A stretch of 64,000 bases of DNA from Bdellovibrionales bacterium (GTDB lineage: Bacteria; Bdellovibrionota; Bdellovibrionia; Bdellovibrionales; UBA1609), in assembly GCA_965261545.1 (NCBI GenBank), contig CBDHDF010000010.1, positions 224,001 through 288,000 of the forward strand, in the 5' to 3' direction. Within the stretch, counting starts at the first letter, position 1. Every line of letters begins with the position of its first letter. The translations under genes were made by a program, and so were the position numbers. The notes under the pieces were generated by a model. That model was not told the origin of the DNA. It saw only the letters and a program-made list of their open reading frames with translations, and made no database searches. Shown here piece after piece: positions 10,514 through 34,024 of the stretch.

Positions 10514-11548
10514 TTATTCTTGATTAACAACACTTTGACATTTAGAGTCCCTTTTAGGGCAGCGACCTCCTGAATGTAAACAAGACTTCACACTTTGATA
10601 GGCCGTAAAGTTCTTTGTTCTATGATAGCTAGAGCTTGAATCTTTTGAATGACATATCCCTGATCTGCTTTTTTTAACATTTGGTTCATCTGTTGGATTG
10701 ACAGTTGGTCGGTTTGCTGGGGTTCTTTGAGAAGAAACTTTCTTTTTTTCCGAAGAAGCCTGTTTGCACTTGGAATCTCTTTTTGGGCATCGTCCACCTG
10801 CACTCAAACAGGATTGAATGTTCGGGAAAGGTTGGTAATTCTTGGTCTTGGAGTAGTAAGGACTGGATTTCCTCATGTGGCAGATATTTGACCTGCTCTT
10901 TTTAACCACAGGACTCTCATTTATAGCGTCTACTGACGCAGCAATTTTTTGTGATACATCTTGTGAACTATCTTGAGTGTTGAAAAAGACCATTTGAAAG
11001 GATGGACACTTGGAAATAATTTTTTCTAAAGCCACCAATTCTTCTGAATCAACTGTCAAGTTGTAGTCTTTTTTAACCTCAACAATTTTATTCGCAAACC
11101 AACATTTATTTTTTTCAGGTATCCAACCAGAAGCATCATGGCCTGATTTCTCTCTCTGATTAATGCCTGGTGAAGCTAATGTAAGGTTTTTAATATCCGA
11201 AGCAAATCGTATTTTTGTTTTTTTATTAGCAGCACAAAGACCACTATCATGAGCTTCGGATAATGAAACGATATGCTCTATATCTGTCTCTTTTATTGAT
11301 TTAAAATATTTGCCTAAATAGGGGGAGTAAATTTTATCGCCCAAGGATTCAACAATTTTATTTTCTAAAGAAGGTGAATAGTTGTAGTCCTTTGAGCGAT
11401 TATAAGGAGAGCACCGCCTCTCCTCTGATATTTTAAGGCCACGCCAATTATTGTCTTTAGATAAAGCAGTGGTTGTGAGGGTCAAAAGAAGGATAAAAAA
11501 GAAAACTTTAAAAAAGTTATAAGAATTATACTCAAAAATACGAATCAT
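10514..11548 (-). CDS. Secreted HNH (DUF1524-like) endonuclease with two C-terminal Cys-rich repeats
   Basis: Signal peptide, DIEHIVSLSEAHDSG...NL...N..EKS motif; duplicated VKKSRS.ICH...TKN...SCL..GGRCPKRDSKC module. Confidence 0.75.
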   Translation of the reverse strand: MIRIFEYNSYNFFKVFFFILLLTLTTTALSKDNNWRGLKISEERRCSPYNRSKDYNYSPSLENKIVESLGDKIYSPYLGKYFKSIKETDIEHIVSLSEAHDSGLCAANKKTKIRFASDIKNLTLASPGINQREKSGHDASGWIPEKNKCWFANKIVEVKKDYNLTVDSEELVALEKIISKCPSFQMVFFNTQDSSQDVSQKIAASVDAINESPVVKKSRSNICHMRKSSPYYSKTKNYQPFPNIQSCLSAGGRCPKRDSKCKQASSEKKKVSSQRTPANRPTVNPTDEPNVKKSRSGICHSKDSSSSYHRTKNFTAYQSVKSCLHSGGRCPKRDSKCQSVVNQE

Positions 11549-12154: not shown

Positions 12155-15106
12155 GTGAGACTTCTATTCATATTTACGTTTCCAATTTATATCTTTCTTT
12201 TTTTCATAGAAATAGAAGTATCTGTAGCCAAGAACCAAGAACCAAGATATAAAAATATTTATAAAATTACTCCTGAGCAAGATTATATAGAAAATTACTT
12301 AAAATCTAATATTCTCATTAGGAACAAAGAAAATACGGGCAGTGGATTTTTTATATCTAAAAGCCTCATAGCTACAAATTACCATGTTGTTAAGGGTTCA
12401 GAAAAAAATATAATTATGTTTGAAAAACAAGATGGAAAGAAGGGGATTGCCCACATTGTTTTCTTTGATGAGAAAAATGATTTAGCTATACTTAAATCTT
12501 GGTCTAACGATGGTGTTCCTCTCAAACTAGGAAACTCATCAACAATAAAATTAACAGATGAAGTTTTAATCATTGGTTCCCCACAAGGACTTCAAGGAAC
12601 TGTGTCTACAGGAATCATCTCTGCAAAAAGAAAAAAAATTCTCGGATTTGATGAGCTTATTCAAACATCAGCTCCCATATCTTTGGGAAGCAGTGGATCC
12701 CCTGTTATATCAAAAAGAACAAAGAAAGTTATAGGGATTGCAACAATAATTCACAAAGAAGGTCAGAATTTAAATTTCTTTTTGCCTATAACTAAATTAA
12801 AAATACTCATCAAGAAAAACATAAATAAAATAAATAAGATGAAAAAAAGCATTATTAGCAAACTATTTAAGAATTCAAAAAATGGATCTAAGTCAGATCA
12901 ATTCTTGCTAGGAACTATGTATTTTTATGGAATACATTTTGACAAAAATTATAGGAAAAGTAAATACTGGTTCTTAAAAAGTGGCTTTAAGTCTTCTTAC
13001 CCATATTTAGGCGCAATATATTATCAGAGGGGACACAGAACTAAAATCAATTATGATAAAGCAAAGAAATATCTATTGAATAGCACTGAAAATCCAGACT
13101 CTTTGAGTATACTAGGCATGATGCATCTTGAAGGCAAGGGATTCTTGTCAAATCAATCAAAAGCATTAGAATACTTCCTAAAATCTTCAAGAAAAGGTCA
13201 TTTGATATCTCAAAAGATTGCAGGCTATATATGCTATAATCAAAAGAATTTCATAGAAGCATCTTTTTGGTTACTAATATCTTCTCTAAGAGACCCAAAC
13301 GATGACAAAATAAAAAATCATCTTGAAAAATCCATGATGAAACTAAGTTCCAATCAAATGTCATCTTTAAGAAGAAGAATAAATTTACTGATTAAAGGAA
13401 AGAATCCTATTGAGACGACTGATAAACCACAGAGATTGATATCCCAAGATACCTCTATAGATGAAGTAAAGATGATGAAGCTTTATGAAAAAGATTGCAA
13501 GGGGGGAGATATGGGAGGCTGTTCTAACCTTGGAGCTCTTGAAGAAAAAAAAGGAAATATGGCAAATGCTGCTGAATTGTATCAAAAAGCCTGCCTAGGG
13601 GGAGAGATGATAGGCTGTTCTAACCTTGGAGCTCTTGAAGAGAAAAAAGGAAATATGTCCAAGGCTGCTGAATTGTATCAAAAAGCCTGCCTGGGGGGAA
13701 ATATGAGTGGCTGTAATAACCTTGGGGGTCTTGAATATAAAAAAGGAAATGTGTCCAAGGCTGCTGAATTGTATCAAAAAGCCTGCCTAGGGGGACAAAT
13801 GAGAGGCTGTTCTAACCTTGGGCTTCTTGAAGATAAAAAAGGAAATATGGCAAATGCTGCTGAATGGTTTCAAAAAGCCTGCCTAGGGGGAAACATGATA
13901 GGCTGTTTTAACCTTGGGATTCTTGAAAAGAAAAAAGGAAATATGCCCAAGGCTGCTGAATGGTATCAAAAAGCCTGCAAGGGGGGAGATATGATAGGCT
14001 GTTCTAACCTTGGGCTTCTTGAATATAAAAAAGGAAATATGTCCAAGGCTGCTGAATGGTATCAAAAAGCCTGCCAGGGAGGATACATGGGAAGCTGTCA
14101 TAGCCTTGGGGTTCTTGAAGAGGACAGAGGAAATATGTTCAAGGCTGCTGAATGGTATCAAAAAGCCTGCAAGGGGGGATACATGGGGGGCTGTTCTAAC
14201 CTTGGGTTTCTTGAAAAGAAAAAAGGAAATATGCCCAAGGCTGCTGAATTGTATCAAAAAGCCTGCCTAGGAGGAGAGATGATGGGCTGTAATAACCTTG
14301 GATTTCTTGAAGAGAAAAAAGGGAATATGGCAAATGCTGCTGAATTGTATCAAAAAGCCTGCCTAGGGGGAGAAATGAGAGGCTGTTCTAACCTTGGGCT
14401 TCTTGAAAAGAAAAAAGGAAATATGTCCAAGGCTGCTGAATTGTATCAAAAAGCCTGCCTAGGGGGAAATATGAAAGGCTGTGTTAACCTTGGGCTTTTT
14501 GAAGAGAAAAAAAGAAATATGTCCAAGGCTGCTGAATTGTATCAAAAAGCCTGCCTAGGGGGATACATGGGGGGTTGCTCTAACCTTGGACTTCTTGAAT
14601 ATAAAAAAGGAAATATGTCCAAGGCTGCTGAATTGTATCAAAAAGCCTGCCTAGGGGGAGACATGATAGGCTGTGTTAACCTTGGGGGTCTTGAATATGA
14701 AAAAGGAAATATGGCAAATGCTGCTGAATTGTATCAAAAAGCCTGCCAGGGGGGAGAAATGATGGGCTGTTTTAACCTTGGGGTTCTTGAAGGTAAAAAA
14801 GGAAATATGTCCAAGGCTGCTGAATTGTATCAAAAAGCCTGCCTAGGGGGAGAAATGAGAGGCTGTAATAACCTTGGGGTTCTTGAAGAGAAAAAAGGAA
14901 ATATGTCCAAGGCTGCTGAATGGTATCAAAAAGCCTGCCTAGGGGGAAATATGAAAGGCTGTCATAACCTTGGGGTTCTTGAATATAAAAAAGGAAATGT
15001 GTCCAAGGCTGCTGAATTGTATCAAAAAGCCTGCCAAGGAGGAGTTCAACTGGGCTGTTCTTCGCTTAAAAAACTTAGACATCGTATGCCTGCTTCGAAT
15101 CAATAG
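12155..15106 (+). CDS. Secreted trypsin-like serine protease fused to Sel1/Hcp-like repeats
   Basis: Signal peptide; GSGF, TNYHVV, NDLAIL, GSSGSP catalytic triad motifs; degenerate Sel1 region, then 16 Cys-paired repeats. Confidence 0.88.
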   Translation: MRLLFIFTFPIYIFLFFIEIEVSVAKNQEPRYKNIYKITPEQDYIENYLKSNILIRNKENTGSGFFISKSLIATNYHVVKGSEKNIIMFEKQDGKKGIAHIVFFDEKNDLAILKSWSNDGVPLKLGNSSTIKLTDEVLIIGSPQGLQGTVSTGIISAKRKKILGFDELIQTSAPISLGSSGSPVISKRTKKVIGIATIIHKEGQNLNFFLPITKLKILIKKNINKINKMKKSIISKLFKNSKNGSKSDQFLLGTMYFYGIHFDKNYRKSKYWFLKSGFKSSYPYLGAIYYQRGHRTKINYDKAKKYLLNSTENPDSLSILGMMHLEGKGFLSNQSKALEYFLKSSRKGHLISQKIAGYICYNQKNFIEASFWLLISSLRDPNDDKIKNHLEKSMMKLSSNQMSSLRRRINLLIKGKNPIETTDKPQRLISQDTSIDEVKMMKLYEKDCKGGDMGGCSNLGALEEKKGNMANAAELYQKACLGGEMIGCSNLGALEEKKGNMSKAAELYQKACLGGNMSGCNNLGGLEYKKGNVSKAAELYQKACLGGQMRGCSNLGLLEDKKGNMANAAEWFQKACLGGNMIGCFNLGILEKKKGNMPKAAEWYQKACKGGDMIGCSNLGLLEYKKGNMSKAAEWYQKACQGGYMGSCHSLGVLEEDRGNMFKAAEWYQKACKGGYMGGCSNLGFLEKKKGNMPKAAELYQKACLGGEMMGCNNLGFLEEKKGNMANAAELYQKACLGGEMRGCSNLGLLEKKKGNMSKAAELYQKACLGGNMKGCVNLGLFEEKKRNMSKAAELYQKACLGGYMGGCSNLGLLEYKKGNMSKAAELYQKACLGGDMIGCVNLGGLEYEKGNMANAAELYQKACQGGEMMGCFNLGVLEGKKGNMSKAAELYQKACLGGEMRGCNNLGVLEEKKGNMSKAAEWYQKACLGGNMKGCHNLGVLEYKKGNVSKAAELYQKACQGGVQLGCSSLKKLRHRMPASNQ
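13499..15034 (+). repeat. 16 x 96-bp coding tandem repeat (32 aa)
   Basis: Unit xGGxMxGCxNLGxLExKKGNMxxAAExYQKAC, counted 16 times with no indels. Confidence 0.97.
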
Positions 15107-15285: not shown

Positions 15286-18200
15286 GTGAGGATGGCAAAC
15301 AAGGAGATATTTTCATTGAAAACCATGTCGAAAACGATTCTAAAAAATATATTTGTCGCCTTGTTTGGCTCTTTGAACTGGACTCTTCCCAAGTGGTTAG
15401 GTGGGTTGATAGGGTGTGTGTGTCGTTTGATTGCTGGAATCAAAAGAGAACATTCAAGCCATAAAAAAAGATTTTATTGTATTCTGTCTTGTCTATTTCT
15501 TTTTGCCGCTGTGGGTGCGAGTGCTTATTTCGGGTATATCCATCAGCCTCAGTTGATGCGAGTCAGTGTTCAGGGGTCCACGATTGAACCCACTCCTCTT
15601 AAAGAGAGAGCAAAGCCTGTAGAATATAGCATTACTTTTGGGGGGTCTGTGGCTAAGCTCTCTGATGTGGGAAAAGTGGTGACAAGTGGTATTTCCATTG
15701 TGCCTGAGATTCAAGGTGTATGGAAATGGGCTTCGGATAGTGAGCTTGTTTTTAAAGTAACAAAGGATTGGCACACGGGGGCCACCCACCGTGTTCATCT
15801 TAAAAAAACGCTTTTTCCCAAGCATATTCACTTAGAAACCTATGAGCTGGAACTGTCCACTCCAAAACTTAAGATTGATATTAAAGAGGCTTCTTTTTAT
15901 CAGAACCCCAAGAAAATAAGAGATAAAAGGGTGGTGGTTGAGTTTCACTTTACCCATCCTATTGATACAGAATCCTTTGAAAAAAATGTGCAACTCATCC
16001 ATCTTTCTGGAGTGGGAAAGGGACTTGTCGCCCGAGGACATAAAGAAAAAATGGATTTTACAGTGACCTATGATGATTTTTTCGGAAAAGCTTTTTTACA
16101 TTCAAAGAATCTAACGATCAAAAATTATGAGAGTCGAGTGAAAGTCGAGGTGAAGGGAAAGATTTATTCCAAGTTACAAGGGCGTGGAGTTCTGGCAGAT
16201 ATTAAGAAAAGTGTCAAAGTGCCAGGAATTTTAACATTTTTTAAATTTCAAAGCTTTGATTTAGAATTTGTGAGGAACAGTGATTATGAGCTTGAGCAAG
16301 TTCTTATACTCAATAGCACAACAAGGGTCTCTTCAAAAGAATTGACAAAACACCTAGAGGTGTACTCACTTCCCAAGGATTGTCCTGCGAGTCTCAATAG
16401 AAAGAAAATCAAAGGATGCCGTTGGGATGTGGATTCTGTGTCCAACAAAGTCCTCGCTGTATATAAAAAGGTTGAGGTTGTCCCCATTCCCACAAAAAAA
16501 GATTTTTCTCAAACCCTTAGCTATAAATATAAAGAAAATCCGGGAATGTTTCTTTATATTCATATCAAAAAAGGTATCAAGTCTTTCGGGGGATATATGT
16601 TGCCGAGAGGATACTCCTTTGTGGCTCAAGTTCCACCCTTTCCAAAAGAGCTAAAGATTATGGCAGAGGGATCATTGTTGAGTCTGAATGGTGAAAGAAA
16701 GCTTTCGATTTTGTCTCGGAATATAAAGAATATAGGGTATCGAATTCAAAGGATATTGCCAGGTCAAATATCTAACTTTATCACACAAAGCTGGGGTGAT
16801 TTAAGTCACCCAAAATTTCGTTCAGAATTTAATTATCACTTGGGGATGGAAAATCAGTTTGGGATAGAAAATATATCTGAGACATTTAGCGGATCGAGAG
16901 CCCTTCCCCTCGTTGCGGATGGAAAAACACAGTACTCTCATTTTGATTTTGAAAAATTTCTAAATAATGTGAAGGGAAGACCCCGAGGACTTTTTCAATT
17001 GACAATTGAGGAGAAATTGAAAAAGCGTTCTTATCCAACGTTGAAAGGACCAACGGATCAGCGGTTTATCCTTGTCACAGATATAGGAATTATATCTAAA
17101 AAATCTGTAAGTGGAGGGTATGACCTATTTATTCAATCCATTTCAAGTGGACGGCCCATGGCAGGGGTCAAGGTTCAAGTGATGGGGAAAAACGGTCTTC
17201 CTGCCCTCACGAAAAGAAGCAATCATAGGGGGCATGTTTGGTTTTCAAGCCTCAAAAACTTTAAGCAAGAAAAGGAGCCTGTGGCTTTTGTTGTCACAAA
17301 AGGGGTCGATCTTTCTTTTTTACCGATTCGCACACATACTAAGGCTTTGAACTATTCTAGATTTGATGTGGGAGGTGTTCATGTTGGGAATCAAAGTCAT
17401 AGTCTAAAAAGCTATATGTTTTCAGACCGTGGTATTTATAGACCAGGTGAGAGGGTACGTATTGGTTATGTGATTAAAAACTCTGACAATTGGTCAGAGA
17501 GCCTTTCAGGTGTACGTCTCTCATTGAGTGTGGAAAACCCCAAGGGTCAATCCATTAAAAATGAGGAAGACATTGGACTCAATCAAGAAGGTCTTCAAAC
17601 CTATGAGTTTGAAACAAATGATAACTGGATCACAGGAGATTACACAGTTTCCTTGTTTGCAAAAATGAAGGAACAAGACCGCATTCAAATGGACTCCATC
17701 AACGTCAAAGTGGAGGAATTTGTACCCGATCGCTTAAAGATATCTGCAAATTTCTCAAAGCCCCTTAATAAAGGCTGGCTTCATCCAAAGGATTTAAAAG
17801 CCCATGTCCACTTAAAAAATCTCTTTGGCACACCTGCGCAAAATCGCCGCATTGTCGGTAAAATTTCTTTGATACCCCGTTATCCCTCCTTTAATGCTTA
17901 TAAAGATTGGAAGTTTTATAGCTCCGTGCGGTCTCAAGAGAGTTTCAATGAGGAGTTGGGAGAGCAAACAACAAACAAAGAAGGCAGTGCTGTGTTTAAC
18001 CTTGGTTTGGATAAGTTTGACTCCTCTTCCTATTTATTAAATTTTATGGTCGAAGGCTTTGAAGCGGAGGGAGGGCGATCTGTTCAGGCTTTTCATACCA
18101 CCCTTGTTTCTCCCCTAGAGTATTTGGTGGGTCACAAGGCACAGGGGGCTCTCAAATATATCCACCGAGGAGCCCAACTGGGAGTTGATTTTATAGCCGT

Positions 18201-21150
18201 TGATGCTCATTTGGAAAAGGTGCCTGTCCAGGAATTGACACTCAAGATTGTTCATTTCCAGTATGTGTCCACATTGGTAAAAAAACTCAATGGCACCTAT
18301 AAATATGAGTCCATTAAAAAAGAACGTGAAGTGAAAAGCTTACCCTTTCATATCAGTGCTTCTGGGACTTCAGTGCCACTAGACACTTCCCAAGCAGGTG
18401 ACTTTGCTCTCGTTGTCTTAAATGGCGATCATTTAGAGCTAAGCCGTGTTCCCTACAGTGTGGCTGGAAAATCCAATTTGGCCTCTCGTTTGGAAAGAAA
18501 TGCCGAACTCAAGGTCCAACTCAATAAAAATGACTTTGCTCCTGGGGACGAAATTGAAATCAATATAAGATCACCCTATGTTGGCTCTGGATTAATCGCT
18601 ATAGAAAGAGAGCGTATTTTTGCCTATAAATGGTTTCATGCAAGTACAAAAAATACTGTTCAAAGGATTCGCATCCCCATGGACTTTGAAGGCAATGGTT
18701 ATGTCAATGTGATGTTTGTGAGGTCTCTATCTTCTAACGAAATCTTTATGAGCCCTCTAAGTGTGGGGGTGGCTCCCTTTTCCATCCATAAATCAAGTCG
18801 TATCAACAAAATCTCCCTTCATGTACCCTCCCTTGTGCGCCCTGGAGATGACTTGGAGATAGATATTGCATCCACTCGCAAAGGTAAGGCCATTGTTTTT
18901 GCTGTTGATGAGGGAATTCTTCAATTTGCTGAGTACAAAAACCCAGACCCCCTCAGTCACTTTTATGAAAAGCAGGCATTGGAAGTTGAAACCAGGCAAA
19001 TTCTTCATCTCATTTTACCTGAATTCTCAAAGGTTGCCTTGAGACGCTCTTCAGAATCGGGAGGGGCTTCAGGGAGTCTTTTGGGCAAAAACCTCAACCC
19101 CTTTAAACGTCAACGAGACAAGTCCGTGGCCTACTGGTCGGGACTCATGGACATTGGACCAAAGTCGCAAAAATTAACATATTCTGTCCCTGACTATTTT
19201 TCAGGACAACTGAGGGTGATTGCTGTGGCTGTATCTCCAGACACGATGGGTGTTTCTGTAGAAAAGACCTTGGTCAAAGGGCCTTTTGTGATCTCTCCAA
19301 ACACACCCACTTTTGTGGCACCAAAAGATGATTTGACCGTTTCTGTTGGTATTTCCAACAACGTGCAAGGTTCGGGTGAAAATGCTGAGGTGGAAGTTCA
19401 TTTAAAGACTTCAGAGAATATTAAAATCAAGGGATCGCCTTCTGTGTCACTAAAAATCAATGAGGGAGACGAAGCCTCAGCAACTTTTGATATTGTCGCC
19501 CAAGAACCTTTAGGCCATGGGGAACTTGTATTTACAGCTCGTTATAAAGATCAATCCAGCCAGCGAAGATCAACCTTAAGTGTGCGACCAGCCACTCCCC
19601 TTATTATATCCGTCCATTCAGGTTATTTAGATGCCAATAAAAGCATCAAGGTGGCAACTCCAAGAAGAGCCTATAAAGAGTTTCAATCCAATGAAGTCTC
19701 CGTTTCTAAAGTACCATTGGGACTTACAAAATCATTTGTAAATTATCTTCAGAAATATCCATATGATTGCACAGAGCAAATCATCAGTCAGGGGTTTCCC
19801 TCTCTTGTCTTTGGCAACTATGAGGAGTGGGGAAAAACAAAGAGCGAAATTGCCACACAGGTGCAAGATATCACTGAAATACTCTCAAATCGTCAACGAC
19901 CTGATGGGAGTTTTACTAAATGGCCAGGTCCCTATGAGGAAGATGCTTTTCATACAGCTTATGCGGTTCACTATTTAACTGAAGCAAGGGACAGGGGCTA
20001 TGAAATTCCAAAGCCTCTTATGAAACATGCTTTGTCTTACCTTGAAGATTTTTCTAAACAGGAGACAAAAGACTTATCCATGGCGAGGATTCAGTCTTAT
20101 GGAGCTTACCTTCTGGCTAGAAATGAGTTTGTTGTCACCCAATCACTGACCTCGTTGGAGCAGTGGCTTGAGAAACACTATGCTGAATATTGGTTCAAGG
20201 ATATTGTGACTTTATATATGGCCAGTGCTTATAAGATCATGAAAGCCTCTATAAGAGCACAAAAGTTACTTATGCAATTTGATGATACCCACAAGACACC
20301 TTCTGAATATAAGTATGGTGTCTATGATGATACGATCAAGCGAGCCATGCATCTCTATTTGGTTTCTAAGCACTTTCCACATATGTTGAGTGCGTTTGAT
20401 GGTGAGAAGATCAATATCTTAGTAAAGCAGCTTTCTAGGGCCTACAATACAAACTCATCGAGTTTATCTATTTTGGCATTTGAGTCCTATGCCCAGGGGC
20501 TTACTCAAATAAAAAAGAAGGGATCATCGGAGGGCTTACCAGACACCTCAGGTATTTCAGTGGTGGAGTGGGTGGAGAAAGCAAAAAATGCATTGAAATT
20601 AGAAGGCTCTTTGTTTCCTAAGTCTGATTTTTCTTCCCACGCCAATGAAATCAGTATTTCCAACGACAGCCAACATGTGGCTTATTTCTCTGTGATTCAA
20701 GAGGGGTTTGATCGAAAATCTAGCCAAGTCCCACTTGTCAGTGGGATTGAAGTGTTTAAGGAGTTTATAGATAAAGAGGGAAATATAAAGGATATCGCCA
20801 AGGATAAAGAGGATAAGGTAAAACTTGGGGATGAATTGACCGTGAGACTACGAACTCGATCCATTGACTCCTTTTGGGTGTCTAATATCGCTATTGTAGA
20901 CCTTCTTCCGGGAGGATTCGAGGTGGTGTTGGATTCTATTGATAGAGATAGTGGAAAAGTAGAATATGTGGATGCAAGAGAGGATCGTGTTTTGATATTC
21001 ACTCACTTTACAAAAGAAATAAAAAGTTACACATACAAAATAAAGGCCATCAATAAGGGGCGCTATCAAGTGCCCCCCGTATTTGCTGAATCCATGTATG
21101 ATCGCCAACTGCAATCAAAAGGGATTGCCAAAGAAATTGTTGTTGAGTGA
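15286..21150 (+). CDS. Bacterial alpha-2-macroglobulin (YfhM-like)
   Basis: 1954 aa; SDRGIYRPGE, VEEFVP, AVDEGILQ, thioester motif YPYDCTEQ, DLLPGGFE, REDR, AESMY; directly upstream of pbpC. Confidence 0.95.
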   Translation: MRMANKEIFSLKTMSKTILKNIFVALFGSLNWTLPKWLGGLIGCVCRLIAGIKREHSSHKKRFYCILSCLFLFAAVGASAYFGYIHQPQLMRVSVQGSTIEPTPLKERAKPVEYSITFGGSVAKLSDVGKVVTSGISIVPEIQGVWKWASDSELVFKVTKDWHTGATHRVHLKKTLFPKHIHLETYELELSTPKLKIDIKEASFYQNPKKIRDKRVVVEFHFTHPIDTESFEKNVQLIHLSGVGKGLVARGHKEKMDFTVTYDDFFGKAFLHSKNLTIKNYESRVKVEVKGKIYSKLQGRGVLADIKKSVKVPGILTFFKFQSFDLEFVRNSDYELEQVLILNSTTRVSSKELTKHLEVYSLPKDCPASLNRKKIKGCRWDVDSVSNKVLAVYKKVEVVPIPTKKDFSQTLSYKYKENPGMFLYIHIKKGIKSFGGYMLPRGYSFVAQVPPFPKELKIMAEGSLLSLNGERKLSILSRNIKNIGYRIQRILPGQISNFITQSWGDLSHPKFRSEFNYHLGMENQFGIENISETFSGSRALPLVADGKTQYSHFDFEKFLNNVKGRPRGLFQLTIEEKLKKRSYPTLKGPTDQRFILVTDIGIISKKSVSGGYDLFIQSISSGRPMAGVKVQVMGKNGLPALTKRSNHRGHVWFSSLKNFKQEKEPVAFVVTKGVDLSFLPIRTHTKALNYSRFDVGGVHVGNQSHSLKSYMFSDRGIYRPGERVRIGYVIKNSDNWSESLSGVRLSLSVENPKGQSIKNEEDIGLNQEGLQTYEFETNDNWITGDYTVSLFAKMKEQDRIQMDSINVKVEEFVPDRLKISANFSKPLNKGWLHPKDLKAHVHLKNLFGTPAQNRRIVGKISLIPRYPSFNAYKDWKFYSSVRSQESFNEELGEQTTNKEGSAVFNLGLDKFDSSSYLLNFMVEGFEAEGGRSVQAFHTTLVSPLEYLVGHKAQGALKYIHRGAQLGVDFIAVDAHLEKVPVQELTLKIVHFQYVSTLVKKLNGTYKYESIKKEREVKSLPFHISASGTSVPLDTSQAGDFALVVLNGDHLELSRVPYSVAGKSNLASRLERNAELKVQLNKNDFAPGDEIEINIRSPYVGSGLIAIERERIFAYKWFHASTKNTVQRIRIPMDFEGNGYVNVMFVRSLSSNEIFMSPLSVGVAPFSIHKSSRINKISLHVPSLVRPGDDLEIDIASTRKGKAIVFAVDEGILQFAEYKNPDPLSHFYEKQALEVETRQILHLILPEFSKVALRRSSESGGASGSLLGKNLNPFKRQRDKSVAYWSGLMDIGPKSQKLTYSVPDYFSGQLRVIAVAVSPDTMGVSVEKTLVKGPFVISPNTPTFVAPKDDLTVSVGISNNVQGSGENAEVEVHLKTSENIKIKGSPSVSLKINEGDEASATFDIVAQEPLGHGELVFTARYKDQSSQRRSTLSVRPATPLIISVHSGYLDANKSIKVATPRRAYKEFQSNEVSVSKVPLGLTKSFVNYLQKYPYDCTEQIISQGFPSLVFGNYEEWGKTKSEIATQVQDITEILSNRQRPDGSFTKWPGPYEEDAFHTAYAVHYLTEARDRGYEIPKPLMKHALSYLEDFSKQETKDLSMARIQSYGAYLLARNEFVVTQSLTSLEQWLEKHYAEYWFKDIVTLYMASAYKIMKASIRAQKLLMQFDDTHKTPSEYKYGVYDDTIKRAMHLYLVSKHFPHMLSAFDGEKINILVKQLSRAYNTNSSSLSILAFESYAQGLTQIKKKGSSEGLPDTSGISVVEWVEKAKNALKLEGSLFPKSDFSSHANEISISNDSQHVAYFSVIQEGFDRKSSQVPLVSGIEVFKEFIDKEGNIKDIAKDKEDKVKLGDELTVRLRTRSIDSFWVSNIAIVDLLPGGFEVVLDSIDRDSGKVEYVDAREDRVLIFTHFTKEIKSYTYKIKAINKGRYQVPPVFAESMYDRQLQSKGIAKEIVVE

Positions 21151-21170
21151 TTTTATAGAGATAAGAGATA

Positions 21171-23621
21171 ATGATAAAGAAGGGAATTTTCATTTTAGTA
21201 TCCATTTTCATTGTTCACAAGATTGTTTTATGGATCCAACCTTTTGGCTCCCTTTTATCAAAAATCCCATTCTCACAGGAAGTGGTGGACAGAAACGGGA
21301 ACCTTTTGCGCCTTTCTTTGTCTGAAGACCAAATCTATCGTTTGAAAACAGATCTGACAGAGATATCCCCTCTGCTTCGTGAAACAACACTTCTTTATGA
21401 AGATCGCTATTTTTATTGGCATATGGGAGTCAATCCATTTTCTATGGTGAGGGCTGCATGGAGCACATTCGTATCAAAGAATAGGATGATGGGAGCCTCA
21501 ACGATTACAATGCAATTAAGTCGTTTGCTTTTTAAGATGGATTCTCGAGGACTTATTGGTAAAGTCCATCAGATGATGAGGGCTTTACAGATTGAGTTCT
21601 TGTATAGTAAGGATGATATTCTAGAGGCTTATTTGAATATAGCACCCTATGGGTTCAATATTGAAGGTGTCGGGGCTGCAAGCAGAATATATTTTGATAA
21701 ACACCCCCGACGACTTTCTCTCTTAGAGTCTCTTACCTTGTCTGTGATTCCTCAAAATCCCACGAAGAGAACCCGACATATTCAGATGCCTCCACTCAGT
21801 GTATCTAAGGAGGCTTATAACAAGCCACTGAAAAAAGCTCTCCATAGATTATTCAGTCAATGGGTGCTAAGGCATCCCAATCACTTTATAAAGAAAATAG
21901 ATTCCAACTTGAACCTGGATATGAGACACCCAAGAAGGCTTCCATTCTACGCTCCTCATCTGGTCACAGAAGTGATGGGAAAAAGGGCAGAAGATTTAAT
22001 CACAGAGAAGCGGTCCATAGTTCTGAGTTTGGATTTGCCCTTGCAATTGATGTTTGAAAAGGTTGCCAAGTCTTATATCCATGAAAGAAAAAGGCATGGA
22101 GTGAAGAATATGTCGGCTCTCCTGGTGGACACGCAGTCCATGGAAGTTCTCTCTTACATTGGCTCTGTGGATTTTTTTAATGAGGGTATCCATGGGCAGG
22201 TCAATGGAGTGCGAGCCAGAAGATCACCTGGCTCTGCTCTCAAGCCCTTTGTGTACGGGTTGGCTATGGAGCAGGGTATTATTCACCCTCTCAGCACTTT
22301 GAAGGATGCACGAACGTCGTTTGGTCTCTATACTCCCGACAATTTTGACAGCCGATTTTCTGGTCCACTTTCAGCAACACAAGCTCTTGTGCTTTCAAGA
22401 AATATTCCAGCCATCCGCTTAACTCGGCAATTATCTGTGCCGAAAGTGCATAAGCTTTTTCACTCATTAAATATACCGCTCCATCCAAACCCACAGCACT
22501 ACGGACTCTCCATTATTTTGGGCACCACGGGTGTGACGATGGAAGAGCTTGTGAAAAGCTATGCCCTATTGAATAACAAGGGGAGGTATCGGCCCATAAA
22601 GAAGCAAATGGACCCAGTGCCCATGCCCATCGGGGTCGGGGTGCCCATAGGTGACCATCTTTTTCGATTTACCGGGGAAATGAAACAAATGAAACGAAGA
22701 AAATCAAAAGAGCAAGAAAAACAGATTTTTTCCAAAGAGGTGGCTTTTTTAGTTTTAGATATGTTGACACAAAACCCTCACCCTCAAGGTAAACCAGGAG
22801 GAAGTACCTGGAAATTACATCCTCAAAGTGTGGCTTGGAAAACAGGCACATCCATGGGTTTTCGTGATGCTTGGGCTGTTGGTGTCTTTGATCATTATGT
22901 TCTTGCAACATGGGTGGGTCATTTTTCAGGTCATGGAAACCAAGCATTTGTTGGGAGAAAGGTGGCTGGCCCCTTGCTGTTTTCATTGATTGAGGCTCTG
23001 GCAAAGGTGAGGGAGGTGAACTTTTCTAAGCCCTCCCCCACTTCAGATTTAAATCTCACAAGTGTTGATTTTTGCCCCCTATCTGGCCGCCTTCCCCACA
23101 AAGATTGCCCACATAGGAAGAAGGGATGGTTCATACCAGGAGTAAGCCCCATACATCGCTGCAAGGTGCATAGAAGAATCGAAATAGACTTGGTTTCTGG
23201 GTACCAGGTTTGCTCAGGATTCAAAGGTCCCACTCAAACCAAAGTTTTTGAAAACTGGCCCACTGATATTCTCAAACTATTTCAACAAGCTGGATTGGGC
23301 AGAAAAACCCCACCCCCACGGCATCCGAAATGTCGTCAAGATATCTTTGGAGACATGGACCCAAAGATTCTTTCTCCAAAAGAAAGAATTGTCTATAATT
23401 TGAGAACATCTGGGTCTGATTCTAAGAAGATTCCCTTTCTGGCTATTGGCGATGGAAGTGTCAAAAATTTTTCTTGGTACGTCAACAATCAGTTTGTAGG
23501 ACAATCTCAAATGAATCATCCCCTCTTATGGATGGCAGCTTCTGGGCAACACACTGTGCGAGTTATAGATGACCATGGTCGATCCACAGAAGTTGCTCTC
23601 AATGTTCAATGGGTGGATTAA
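21171..23621 (+). CDS. pbpC: Penicillin-binding protein 1C
   Basis: EDRYF..H.G and GASTITMQL transglycosylase motifs; SALK, SRN, KTGT transpeptidase motifs; canonical pairing with alpha-2-macroglobulin. Confidence 0.93.
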   Translation: MIKKGIFILVSIFIVHKIVLWIQPFGSLLSKIPFSQEVVDRNGNLLRLSLSEDQIYRLKTDLTEISPLLRETTLLYEDRYFYWHMGVNPFSMVRAAWSTFVSKNRMMGASTITMQLSRLLFKMDSRGLIGKVHQMMRALQIEFLYSKDDILEAYLNIAPYGFNIEGVGAASRIYFDKHPRRLSLLESLTLSVIPQNPTKRTRHIQMPPLSVSKEAYNKPLKKALHRLFSQWVLRHPNHFIKKIDSNLNLDMRHPRRLPFYAPHLVTEVMGKRAEDLITEKRSIVLSLDLPLQLMFEKVAKSYIHERKRHGVKNMSALLVDTQSMEVLSYIGSVDFFNEGIHGQVNGVRARRSPGSALKPFVYGLAMEQGIIHPLSTLKDARTSFGLYTPDNFDSRFSGPLSATQALVLSRNIPAIRLTRQLSVPKVHKLFHSLNIPLHPNPQHYGLSIILGTTGVTMEELVKSYALLNNKGRYRPIKKQMDPVPMPIGVGVPIGDHLFRFTGEMKQMKRRKSKEQEKQIFSKEVAFLVLDMLTQNPHPQGKPGGSTWKLHPQSVAWKTGTSMGFRDAWAVGVFDHYVLATWVGHFSGHGNQAFVGRKVAGPLLFSLIEALAKVREVNFSKPSPTSDLNLTSVDFCPLSGRLPHKDCPHRKKGWFIPGVSPIHRCKVHRRIEIDLVSGYQVCSGFKGPTQTKVFENWPTDILKLFQQAGLGRKTPPPRHPKCRQDIFGDMDPKILSPKERIVYNLRTSGSDSKKIPFLAIGDGSVKNFSWYVNNQFVGQSQMNHPLLWMAASGQHTVRVIDDHGRSTEVALNVQWVD

Positions 23622-32093: not shown

Positions 32094-33947
32094 CTAAGAC
32101 CCTTTATGCGCTTCAAGGAGACGTTGAAGTTCTTTTTCAATCATTTGAGTGGCAAGGTCGGGGACAACCCTCCGAACCACAGCCTCAAGCATTTCTTGAG
32201 ATTGAGCTCGAATAATTTCTTCGAGCTTGTCTTCACTAAGTTGTTCGACTTTGGATTCCTTTTGTTTGGATTTCTGCTGATGGTGGTCCACAGCCGCACG
32301 CCTGCCCATAACCTGAACCTCTGCCCCCCCAATCGTCGCTTCGCTTTCTAGGGAAGATACCTGAGTAGGAGCTAGGGGAGACACCTGAGTGGGAGCTAGA
32401 GAAGATACCTGAGATACCTGAGTAGGAGCTAGAGAAGATACCTTTGCCACATGATCGCCTTGTTGACGGTGAGGCTGCGGATATGGGGATTCTTGCTCTT
32501 GCTGAATCTTTCCCAACTGGGGCCCCTTAGAAGACGGAATAATGTAGTTCAAAGGTAGACTTTCATAGGAGTCCTCTTCACTCTGAGAGTCAGGATCCAT
32601 ATCAAAATCCACTTTGAATCTACTTAAGTCTTTGCCTTGATCTAAAGATGGATTTTCTATGGAACTTGCTTCCCTGGAAGTGTGATTCGACATACTCCCG
32701 GTAGCCCTAGAAGCTTGACCCAAGGACATTTCTCTAAATCCTGAAGAGTCTTCTTCACCTTCTCGACTCTCACCAAAATTAGACCTCTCGGCCTCTCCAT
32801 GACCAACCTCTCCATAAATACTTGCCACCGCTGTGCCCCCCATACCAGGACCAGGACCAGGACCAGGAGATCCAGCATCCAAGGACAGTTCGATAAAATC
32901 AGAGCTGTCCTCCTCTTCATGGGTGCCCTCGTTAGGGGCAATCTCAACATGATCTAAACCATAAATACTTGCCACCGCTGTGCCCATACCAGGACCAGGA
33001 GATCCAGCATCCAAGGGCAGTTCGATAAAATCAGAGCTGTCCTCCTCTTCATGGGTGCCCTCGCTATGGGCAATCTCAACATGATCTAAACCATGAATAC
33101 TTGCCACCGCTGTGCCCATACCAGGAGATCCAGCATCCAAGGGCAGTTCGATAAAATCAGAGATGTCCTCCTCTTCATGGGTGCCCTCGCTATGGGCAAT
33201 CTCAACATGATCTAAACCATGGCGGCCACCCTCTAGGCGCAGTTCTTCAAAGTCGGGTATATCGCCTTCAAAACTCTTAGGATCAAACTCATTAAACTCA
33301 GACTCGTTAAATTCAAACTTATTAGATTGAGGCTCGTTAGATTGAGGCTCATTAAATTCAAATTCGTTAGATTTAGATTTAAAAGTCAACTGGTGAGAAA
33401 AAGATTGTGCTGACACCTCAGATTCCATAGACCTTACAAGCTCCTTCTTATGTCGTTTTCTAGGACCTTTCTGGGATAAATGAGTCCTCGAATTGAGAGG
33501 TGGAGGAGTTGAGGCTTCGTAGTCCATAGTCTCTGGTAAAGTAGGAAAAGTCAAATAAGACGACAGGGCTTGAGACCTGGTTTTTGGCACCAAACTCTTT
33601 ACCATTCGACGGAGGGTATCCACTTCAAAGGGCTTTTCCAGCTTGGCGTTGGCCAAGCAGCCTTGAAACTTATCCTCATCAATATCCATGAACTCACTGC
33701 ACATCAAAACCACGGGTATGGCTTTCAGTGCCTGAGAGGACTTAAGACTTGAACTCACGTCATAGCCATTTTTTTTTTGCAAAAGTATATCGGCAAAAAC
33801 AATATCTGGGGCCAACTTCTTGGTCACGGGCTCAACGTCCAAACCTGTATTTACTGAATGCACCTCGGCAGCATAGTCCTTAAGGGCAAGTTGAAAAACC
33901 TTCTTAATGGTGGGGCTCTCATCAGCGAGCAAGACGCACAAAGCCAT
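32094..33947 (-). CDS. romR: RomR-like polarity response regulator
   Basis: N-terminal receiver (LLADES.TIKKV), long acidic/Pro linker, C-terminal helix motif EAVVRRVVPDLATQMIEKELQRLL; nadC-birA context. Confidence 0.75.
   Translation of the reverse strand: MALCVLLADESPTIKKVFQLALKDYAAEVHSVNTGLDVEPVTKKLAPDIVFADILLQKKNGYDVSSSLKSSQALKAIPVVLMCSEFMDIDEDKFQGCLANAKLEKPFEVDTLRRMVKSLVPKTRSQALSSYLTFPTLPETMDYEASTPPPLNSRTHLSQKGPRKRHKKELVRSMESEVSAQSFSHQLTFKSKSNEFEFNEPQSNEPQSNKFEFNESEFNEFDPKSFEGDIPDFEELRLEGGRHGLDHVEIAHSEGTHEEEDISDFIELPLDAGSPGMGTAVASIHGLDHVEIAHSEGTHEEEDSSDFIELPLDAGSPGPGMGTAVASIYGLDHVEIAPNEGTHEEEDSSDFIELSLDAGSPGPGPGPGMGGTAVASIYGEVGHGEAERSNFGESREGEEDSSGFREMSLGQASRATGSMSNHTSREASSIENPSLDQGKDLSRFKVDFDMDPDSQSEEDSYESLPLNYIIPSSKGPQLGKIQQEQESPYPQPHRQQGDHVAKVSSLAPTQVSQVSSLAPTQVSPLAPTQVSSLESEATIGGAEVQVMGRRAAVDHHQQKSKQKESKVEQLSEDKLEEIIRAQSQEMLEAVVRRVVPDLATQMIEKELQRLLEAHKGS
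32814..33218 (-). repeat. Three coding tandem repeats (42, 44, 49 aa) in the RomR linker
   Basis: GLDHVEIA..EGTHEEED.SDFIEL.LDAGS(PG)nMG(G)TAVASI. Confidence 0.92.
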
Positions 33948-34024
33948 GCCTTAGTAAACGCCTTTAGTAACATTCAGTCAAGTCGGATTGACGATATCAC
34001 CTAAGACCTTTATCTTGACATATA

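Follow-up and report, generated by a model that had tools for sequence, protein, structure and literature searches.

Tandem repeats of the HIC (high-internal-conservation) type (TPR, ANK, WD) occur in fungal NLR proteins, for instance in het-d/het-e and Pa_2_10340 of Podospora anserina (PMC4986451, PMC12222747). As far as these sources describe them, the repeats are near-identical tandem units in concerted evolution, polymorphic in length, with a few hypervariable codons that are under positive selection and lie on a concave ligand face. The principle of such diversification is already known from the fungal NLR repeats (PMC4986451). The cysteine-rich Sel1-like proteins of Helicobacter are secreted, and positive selection on them has been reported (PMC1941758); HcpB and HcpC (1klx, 1ouv) possess alpha/alpha repeats with C-x7-C spacing of the cysteines. 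In TPRs, positions 2, 5, 9, 12, 13, 33 and 34 are the most variable and belong to the concave face, and ligand contacts in HOP involve positions 2, 5, 6, 9, 12 and 13 (Magliery and Regan, PMC1261162). Bdellovibrionota that live in sponges and possess repeat proteins are described as well (PMC9944714). A literature search covering few subscription journals found no publication on the protease-repeat fusion described below.

The gene described here originates from a member of the Bdellovibrionales, a relative of the predator Bdellovibrio, and is located in a window of 64,000 nucleotides, i.e. the whole stretch of DNA that was analysed. It starts with GTG and its product comprises 983 aa (Table 1).

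Table 1. Feature coordinates of the protease gene, given as positions of the window.
Feature	Position	Strand	Remarks
Whole gene	12155..15106	+	983 aa; probable export signal followed by protease, Sel1-like hairpins, linker, repeat array and cap
Probable Sec signal peptide, aa 1-26	12155..12232	+	inferred from hydropathy
HtrA/S1C-like trypsin domain, aa ~56-221	12320..12817	+	Pfam Trypsin_2, E 4e-25
~4-5 degenerate Sel1-like helical hairpins, aa ~246-413	12890..13393	+	Pfam Sel1, best stretch 316-349
Linker and first helix ending at Cys448	13394..13498	+	linker ~20 aa, low confidence in the model
Array of 16 x 96-bp = 32-aa Cys-paired TPR/Sel1-like units	13499..15034	+	TRF score 2153
Capping half-unit (helix A with last Cys) and stop	15035..15106	+	

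The N-terminus is the sole strongly hydrophobic segment of the protein, with all hydropathy maxima beginning within aa 1-11. A helix at aa 4-25 is present in the predicted structure of this region, and the N-termini of the protease orthologues resemble it; the protease is probably exported via an N-terminal signal peptide. Its trypsin domain matches HtrA structures (E ~1e-19), which are the nearest proteases. The triad, which a preliminary description of this DNA had called intact, is present in the motifs TNYH77, ND109LA and GSS180G (codons at 12383, 12479 and 12692, respectively), and all three residues are unchanged in 6/6 aligned orthologues. With HtrA, DegP and DegS (S1C) the protein shares the trypsin fold, the His-Asp-Ser motifs, a probable N-terminal export signal and a putative peptide-binding region at the C-terminus. 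In HtrA, PDZ domains target or activate the protease. Unlike these proteins, the present one lacks PDZ in a profile scan with 16 Pfam families and has GSSG in place of GNSG; it also misses every NCBIfam HtrA cut-off (408-800 bits) with scores of at most 109 bits, the best being 108.6 bits against a cut-off of 416.2.

Between protease and array lie the Sel1-like hairpins, absent from the preliminary description. Their helices are predicted with pLDDT 77-94, and they follow the protease domain in all close orthologues. Lying next to the protease, they could be the substrate-binding part, which counts against such a role of the array. The alignment-based model of the protease half has only moderate confidence in the protease domain itself, and a single-sequence model of aa 1-437 (pLDDT < 50) was not usable. 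GC3 is 0.26 in the front half and 0.37 in the array; the former value ranks in the bottom 1.7% among 1836 long ORFs and suggests acquisition of the front half from an AT-rich relative. A promoter and terminator scan was uninformative, with 15 of 26 promoter-like matches being one repeated match inside the array.

In the array, 16 complete units, each 96 bp in length and free of indels, are followed by a truncated capping unit; all units announced by the preliminary description were found. Mean pairwise identity between units is 87.1% for nucleotides and 77.2% for amino acids (range 59-91%), and it does not drop with distance along the array. The framework is nearly identical, as had been claimed, with the amino acid fixed in 17 of the 32 unit columns and Cys32 and Cys8, the C-x7-C pair, invariant in all 16 units. 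The five columns singled out as hypervariable carry exactly the residues listed for them: column 4 has five states (D/E/N/Q/Y), column 6 six (G/I/S/R/M/K), column 9 five (S/N/F/H/V), column 13 six (A/G/L/I/V/F) and column 16 five (E/Y/D/K/G). Combined into a five-residue code, they give a unique combination in each of the 16 units. The third base of codons 9 and 13 is T in 16/16 units, again as noted before. A few dimorphic blocks had been said to assort independently, which is supported (see below); as a small correction, column 22 has four states (A/S/P/F).

AlphaFold predicts the array with pLDDT ~87, helix A extending over unit positions 5-17 and helix B from 21 to 1. Foldseek with this model retrieves TPR and Sel1 solenoids, including OGT, SPY and Sel1 proteins, Pfam TPR_1/TPR_2 score above cut-off, and a search of the ESM Atlas yields generic TPR/Sel1 clusters only. 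With 32 aa the unit is shorter than those of TPR (34 aa) and Hcp/Sel1 (36 aa). Against the consensus TPR hairpin (CTPR designs 9qhb and 8bu0), helix A, turn and helix B align without gaps; the inter-repeat loop is two residues shorter than in canonical TPR, and cysteines occupy the Trp4 and Leu28 positions. Against Helicobacter HcpC (1ouv) Cys aligns to Cys (E 1.6e-16) with a 4-residue gap in each unit. HcpB and HcpC share with the array the cysteine spacing and the alpha/alpha repeats, but here the 4-residue inter-helix loop is lacking, the units are near-identical and a protease is fused. By sequence comparison, the unit is a hybrid of a TPR-like helix hairpin and an Hcp-like C-x7-C pair. 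The resemblance to Hcp/Sel1 with a unit four residues shorter, recorded in the preliminary description, was borne out, but the hairpin is nearer to TPR. Unit positions 6, 9, 13, 16 and 4 align with TPR positions 2, 5, 9, 12 and 34, which are variable in canonical TPR as well; the numbering follows the usual Trp4-Leu7-Gly8 convention. The five variable columns correspond to five of the seven concave-face positions listed in PMC1261162, so that the earlier placement on one helix face agrees with homology, and their location on the ligand-groove face is supported by this alignment.

The array resembles the HIC repeats of fungal NLRs, as described in the above sources, in its near-identical tandem units, its concerted evolution and the positive selection at a small number of hypervariable concave-face codons. 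Unlike fungal NLRs the protein is bacterial, probably exported instead of cytoplasmic, devoid of NACHT and NB-ARC domains in a Pfam scan of its 983 aa, and its effector is the fused serine protease. The HIC criterion is >85% identity over ≥100 aa; plain pairwise comparison of the units gives means of 87% (nucleotides) and 77% (amino acids). Length polymorphism is known for the fungal repeats, and the protease array is known from one allele. The protein belongs neither to the NLRs nor to the canonical Hcp or HtrA proteins.

We lean, with little more than even confidence, towards an exported HtrA-like protease in which a disulfide-stapled TPR-like solenoid replaces PDZ and the groove of the solenoid binds a changing foreign protein. 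After export the C-x7-C pairs would form disulfides, and the 16 units are predicted to stack into a single long superhelical groove whose lining comes from positions 4, 6, 9, 13 and 16. The array would have grown recently from ~3 units and been homogenised and shuffled by intragenic recombination, as the sequence statistics and one orthologue (P0121) suggest, with selection probably favouring new amino-acid changes at groove positions, in line with the simulations below. The groove may then bind a changing protein of prey, a competitor or an animal host, and binding would bring the protease to its partner or switch it on.

Of the 384 genomes searched in the order, nine contain a match to the front half at E <= 1e-30, counting the source genome itself. 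The closest named orthologue (L016) belongs to a Bdellovibrionales MAG (G060), i.e. to the same order as the source genome. In this one orthologue locus that was read the neighbours differ, and there is no support for a functional connection of the protease with its neighbours in the window, alpha-2-macroglobulin/PBP1C. Trypsin-Sel1 fusions of other Bdellovibrionales (P0121-P0124, L002, L003, L130) share the protease-Sel1 front half; their tails consist of ankyrin, 36-aa Sel1, ~3 units or nothing, never of 16 such units. Past the linker and first helix (Cys448) the orthologues split into different repeat types. P0121 is built in the same way throughout, aligning at 44% over 592 aa and ending in ~3 units and a cap. 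P0122, P0123, P0124 and P0201 possess ankyrin repeats at the place of the array, and the tail of remoter trypsin-Sel1 proteins consists of 36-aa Sel1 repeats, in one case (L003) as a homogenised array. Because orthologues carry ~3 units or ankyrin repeats instead, the tail is, judged by these alignments, an exchangeable module on one protease-Sel1 front half.

The unit itself is more widely distributed. When six units were searched against 301 genomes of the order, 17 gave a match, some of them through ordinary Sel1 repeats. True 32-aa units are found on stand-alone proteins (L099, L100, L101, L125), on an unrelated trypsin (L118), on Ser/Thr kinases and on other N-terminal domains. In nine other arrays built from this unit, variability is highest at columns 13, 9, 10, 16, 6 and 4, among them all five hypervariable columns of the protease array. 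Near-identical kinases differ by exactly two units (P0013/P0207) or exactly three (P0021/P0204); such differences in number, seen only in these other proteins and not in protease alleles, may reflect either natural variation or the assemblies.

The chief alternative to targeting is anchoring: the array, with the same diversifying groove, would be an anchor or adhesin to the surface of host, prey or the bacterium itself, and the protease would cut nearby proteins regardless of the code. The enzyme-free stand-alone proteins, the kinases and the other N-terminal domains bearing the unit favour this explanation, as does the flexible linker separating the array from the protease-Sel1 half. However, the exchange of ankyrin and 32-aa tails at the same place of the same protease, and the presence of the unit on the unrelated trypsin, suit targeting while being compatible with anchoring, which we regard as possible but unlikely.

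Recombination between units was detected. Of 45 pairs formed by biallelic framework sites, 29 fail the four-gamete test; p in a PHI-like permutation is 0.002-0.01 for windows of 10-20 bases. Associations between columns (p < 0.05) are limited to 2 of 36 pairs, the number expected by chance. These results support a shuffling of the units by intragenic recombination, as the preliminary description had proposed. In the assembly, which is 96.8% complete, the unit occurs at a single locus, and no paralogous cassettes that could act as donors were found. A diversity-generating retroelement was also rejected, with no template copy in the assembly and no adenine bias: consensus-A columns are invariant in 20 of 31 cases, the same as for other bases. 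With no donor copy elsewhere and no adenine bias, the units exchange with one another inside the gene, without a DGR. The genome contains 30 reverse-transcriptase matches, many of them identical copies across contigs, which from this spread look like mobile introns.

Nucleotide diversity at the five groove codons is strongly non-synonymous. There piN is 0.512 versus 0.058 at the other codons, with a piS of 0.128, so that groove non-synonymous diversity is four times synonymous diversity (0.51 vs 0.13). At minimum, 23 non-synonymous changes on 12.1 sites stand against 12 synonymous changes on 19.4 sites (binomial p ~0.001, for sites picked after seeing the data). Because of this post hoc choice and the recombination, simulations with picking of the best five columns were used: 16 copies evolved by mutation and gene conversion, and runs were compared with the array at matching synonymous diversity, in simple models of our own code, not HyPhy/PAML, with fixed tract lengths and short runs. 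Neutral runs (omega = 1 at all codons, best five picked) reached the observed allele count in 0/272, 0/745 and 2/870 cases and the observed diversity in 0, 0.3% and 1.7%. Neutral runs with a constrained framework reached the allele count in 0/313, 0/617 and 0/608, and those with other kappa values in 0/677 and 0/627. Simple as the models are, these results favour selection for novel amino acids at the groove positions; the diversifying selection and mostly non-synonymous variation suggested earlier are thereby supported, the neutral simulations rarely matching. Groove piN/piS is only 0.7-1.5 in five other arrays, the present array being the most extreme of the six examined.

The same qualitative pattern would arise if the groove residues of each unit were long established and suited to a single long target, with conversion homogenising the framework only and no ongoing diversification. 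In a model where old alleles resist conversion, the observed 27 alleles were reached in 0/70, 2/71 (the strongest version) and 0/76 matched runs. Runs with many groove alleles, however, carry 11-16 synonymous alleles in codons 7-15 versus three observed; three or fewer appeared in 0/86, 1/99 and 0/502 runs. The uniform third base of codons 9 and 13 also argues against old residues, and we judge this explanation improbable. Positive selection alone cannot separate pursuit from escape, and the groove might vary to evade a binder such as a host receptor, protease inhibitor or phage protein instead of gaining targets; selection on the Helicobacter Sel1-like proteins, reported in a host setting (PMC1941758), would fit. 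Yet escape would reach beyond the groove, and the exposed convex-face and helix-B positions are nearly invariant (the piN of 0.058 given above), which makes it quite improbable.

In the genome, 59 tandem loci have a coding-type period, and 45 consist of 75-bp units; its other arrays include ankyrin, a 23-unit TPR and more, and they exhibit a weaker form of the groove-variation pattern. Contigs matching the gene were available from four runs of one sample and one study, with a depth of 2-5, the sample possibly being the source and so not independent. They match the unique half, where the longest listed piece (1610 bases) shows no other letters, and they bridge the linker to unit 1. Two inter-unit joints are also seen in short contigs, and the junction of last unit and cap is present in those of two of the four runs. 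Matching stopped after unit 1, and the order and number of units rest on the assembly. All 27 variant letters listed from contigs are alleles already present in the assembly, and 22 assembled alleles are not among them; no variation within the population was detected in the contigs of this sample, for which the depth of 2-5 gives little power. Conspecific alleles were found neither in a metagenome scan, in which 476 candidates reduced to two loci, both unrelated, nor as close matches in protein searches (lengths 540-1721 aa). A neutral recent expansion with relaxed surface constraint, or an assembly chimera of several loci, is very improbable: arrays arise easily in a genome with so many tandem loci, and unit order and number come from the assembly, but neutral simulations fail to match, the unit is confined to one locus with a longest exact internal repeat of 60 bp, and short contigs cover the two junctions as well as two joints between units.

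With statistical support, the array extends NLR-style diversification of repeats to a bacterium and to an enzyme that is probably exported, and its 32-aa Cys-paired TPR variant is apparently undescribed. Uncultured Bdellovibrionales are indicated to have a protease family with exchangeable tails. Should the choice of substrate depend on the tail, the recognition of prey or host by these bacteria becomes testable, and the array would represent a compact disulfide-stabilised binding scaffold. More speculatively, Bdellovibrionales may possess a whole family of exported proteases with plug-in tails, the present one being retargeted within populations by unit recombination; the code of five residues per unit would then decide which prey or host proteins are cut. 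Such a system, doubtful as we hold it to be at present, would parallel the fungal NLR sensors in an extracellular and offensive role and would offer a natural, readable protease-targeting code.

The AT-rich gene divergent from the protease gene possesses a signal-like N-terminus, two Cys-rich repeats at its C-terminus and a third-codon-position GC of 0.31, and was possibly acquired together with the protease gene. Adjacency of the downstream alpha-2-macroglobulin and PBP1C genes to the protease is not kept at the single orthologue locus read. The tandem repeat inside the response-regulator-like gene consists of a 132-bp unit in 2.8 copies with 95% identity.

Neighbours of the protease gene and repeat-bearing features (G000, source genome; C2, C9 and C11, its contigs)
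Feature	Location	Strand	Remarks
Divergent AT-rich gene	window 10514-11548	-	GmrSD_C/HNH-type match, E 7e-7
Bacterial alpha-2-macroglobulin (protease trap) and PBP1C	window 15286-23621	+	directly downstream of protease gene
Response-regulator-like gene	window 32097-33950	-	tandem repeat at 32856-33220
TPR array protein, 1170 aa	G000:C2:546533-550042	+	23 near-identical 34-aa TPRs
'QPHW' paralogue	G000:C9:7352-10252		7 units, 32-aa helical repeat
'QPHW' paralogue	G000:C11:362006-364564		5 units, 32-aa helical repeat
Ankyrin-repeat protein, 1328 aa	G000:C2:35771-39754		near-identical repeats

Variation among the units of the TPR array protein, whose N-terminal part is presumably FRG-like, falls mostly at TPR positions 2, 5, 6 and 9, with a piN of 0.41 in the ligand-face groove vs. 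a piS of 0.32. Both 'QPHW' paralogues carry what looks like a nucleotidyltransferase-like N-terminus ahead of the repeats, and copies of one unknown domain flank the ankyrin repeats on both sides. Repeats of 75-bp period at 45 loci of the genome represent a large expansion of 25-aa repeats, which we take to be BspA/DUF285-like (265 motif matches), in arrays of up to 28 units with variable columns. Reverse-transcriptase matches number 30 genome-wide, 27 of them above the cut-off, and eight share identical scores.

At a loose end at window position 13516, contigs from three of the four sequencing runs contain a related 32-aa unit. This unit was not found in the source genome; therefore, another locus or organism of the same sample carries the 32-aa repeat.

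Among the trypsin-Sel1 relatives, L131, L132 and L135 are fusions with an N-terminal membrane domain, presumably RDD-like, ahead of the trypsin-Sel1 part, and in L131 and L132 Ser replaces the Tyr preceding the catalytic His. The small genomes (1.2-1.8 Mb) of the relatives G017, G018, G025 and G002 possess 11-32 matches apiece, many of them trypsin-Sel1 fusions; these proteases are thus an expanded family in small-genome relatives.
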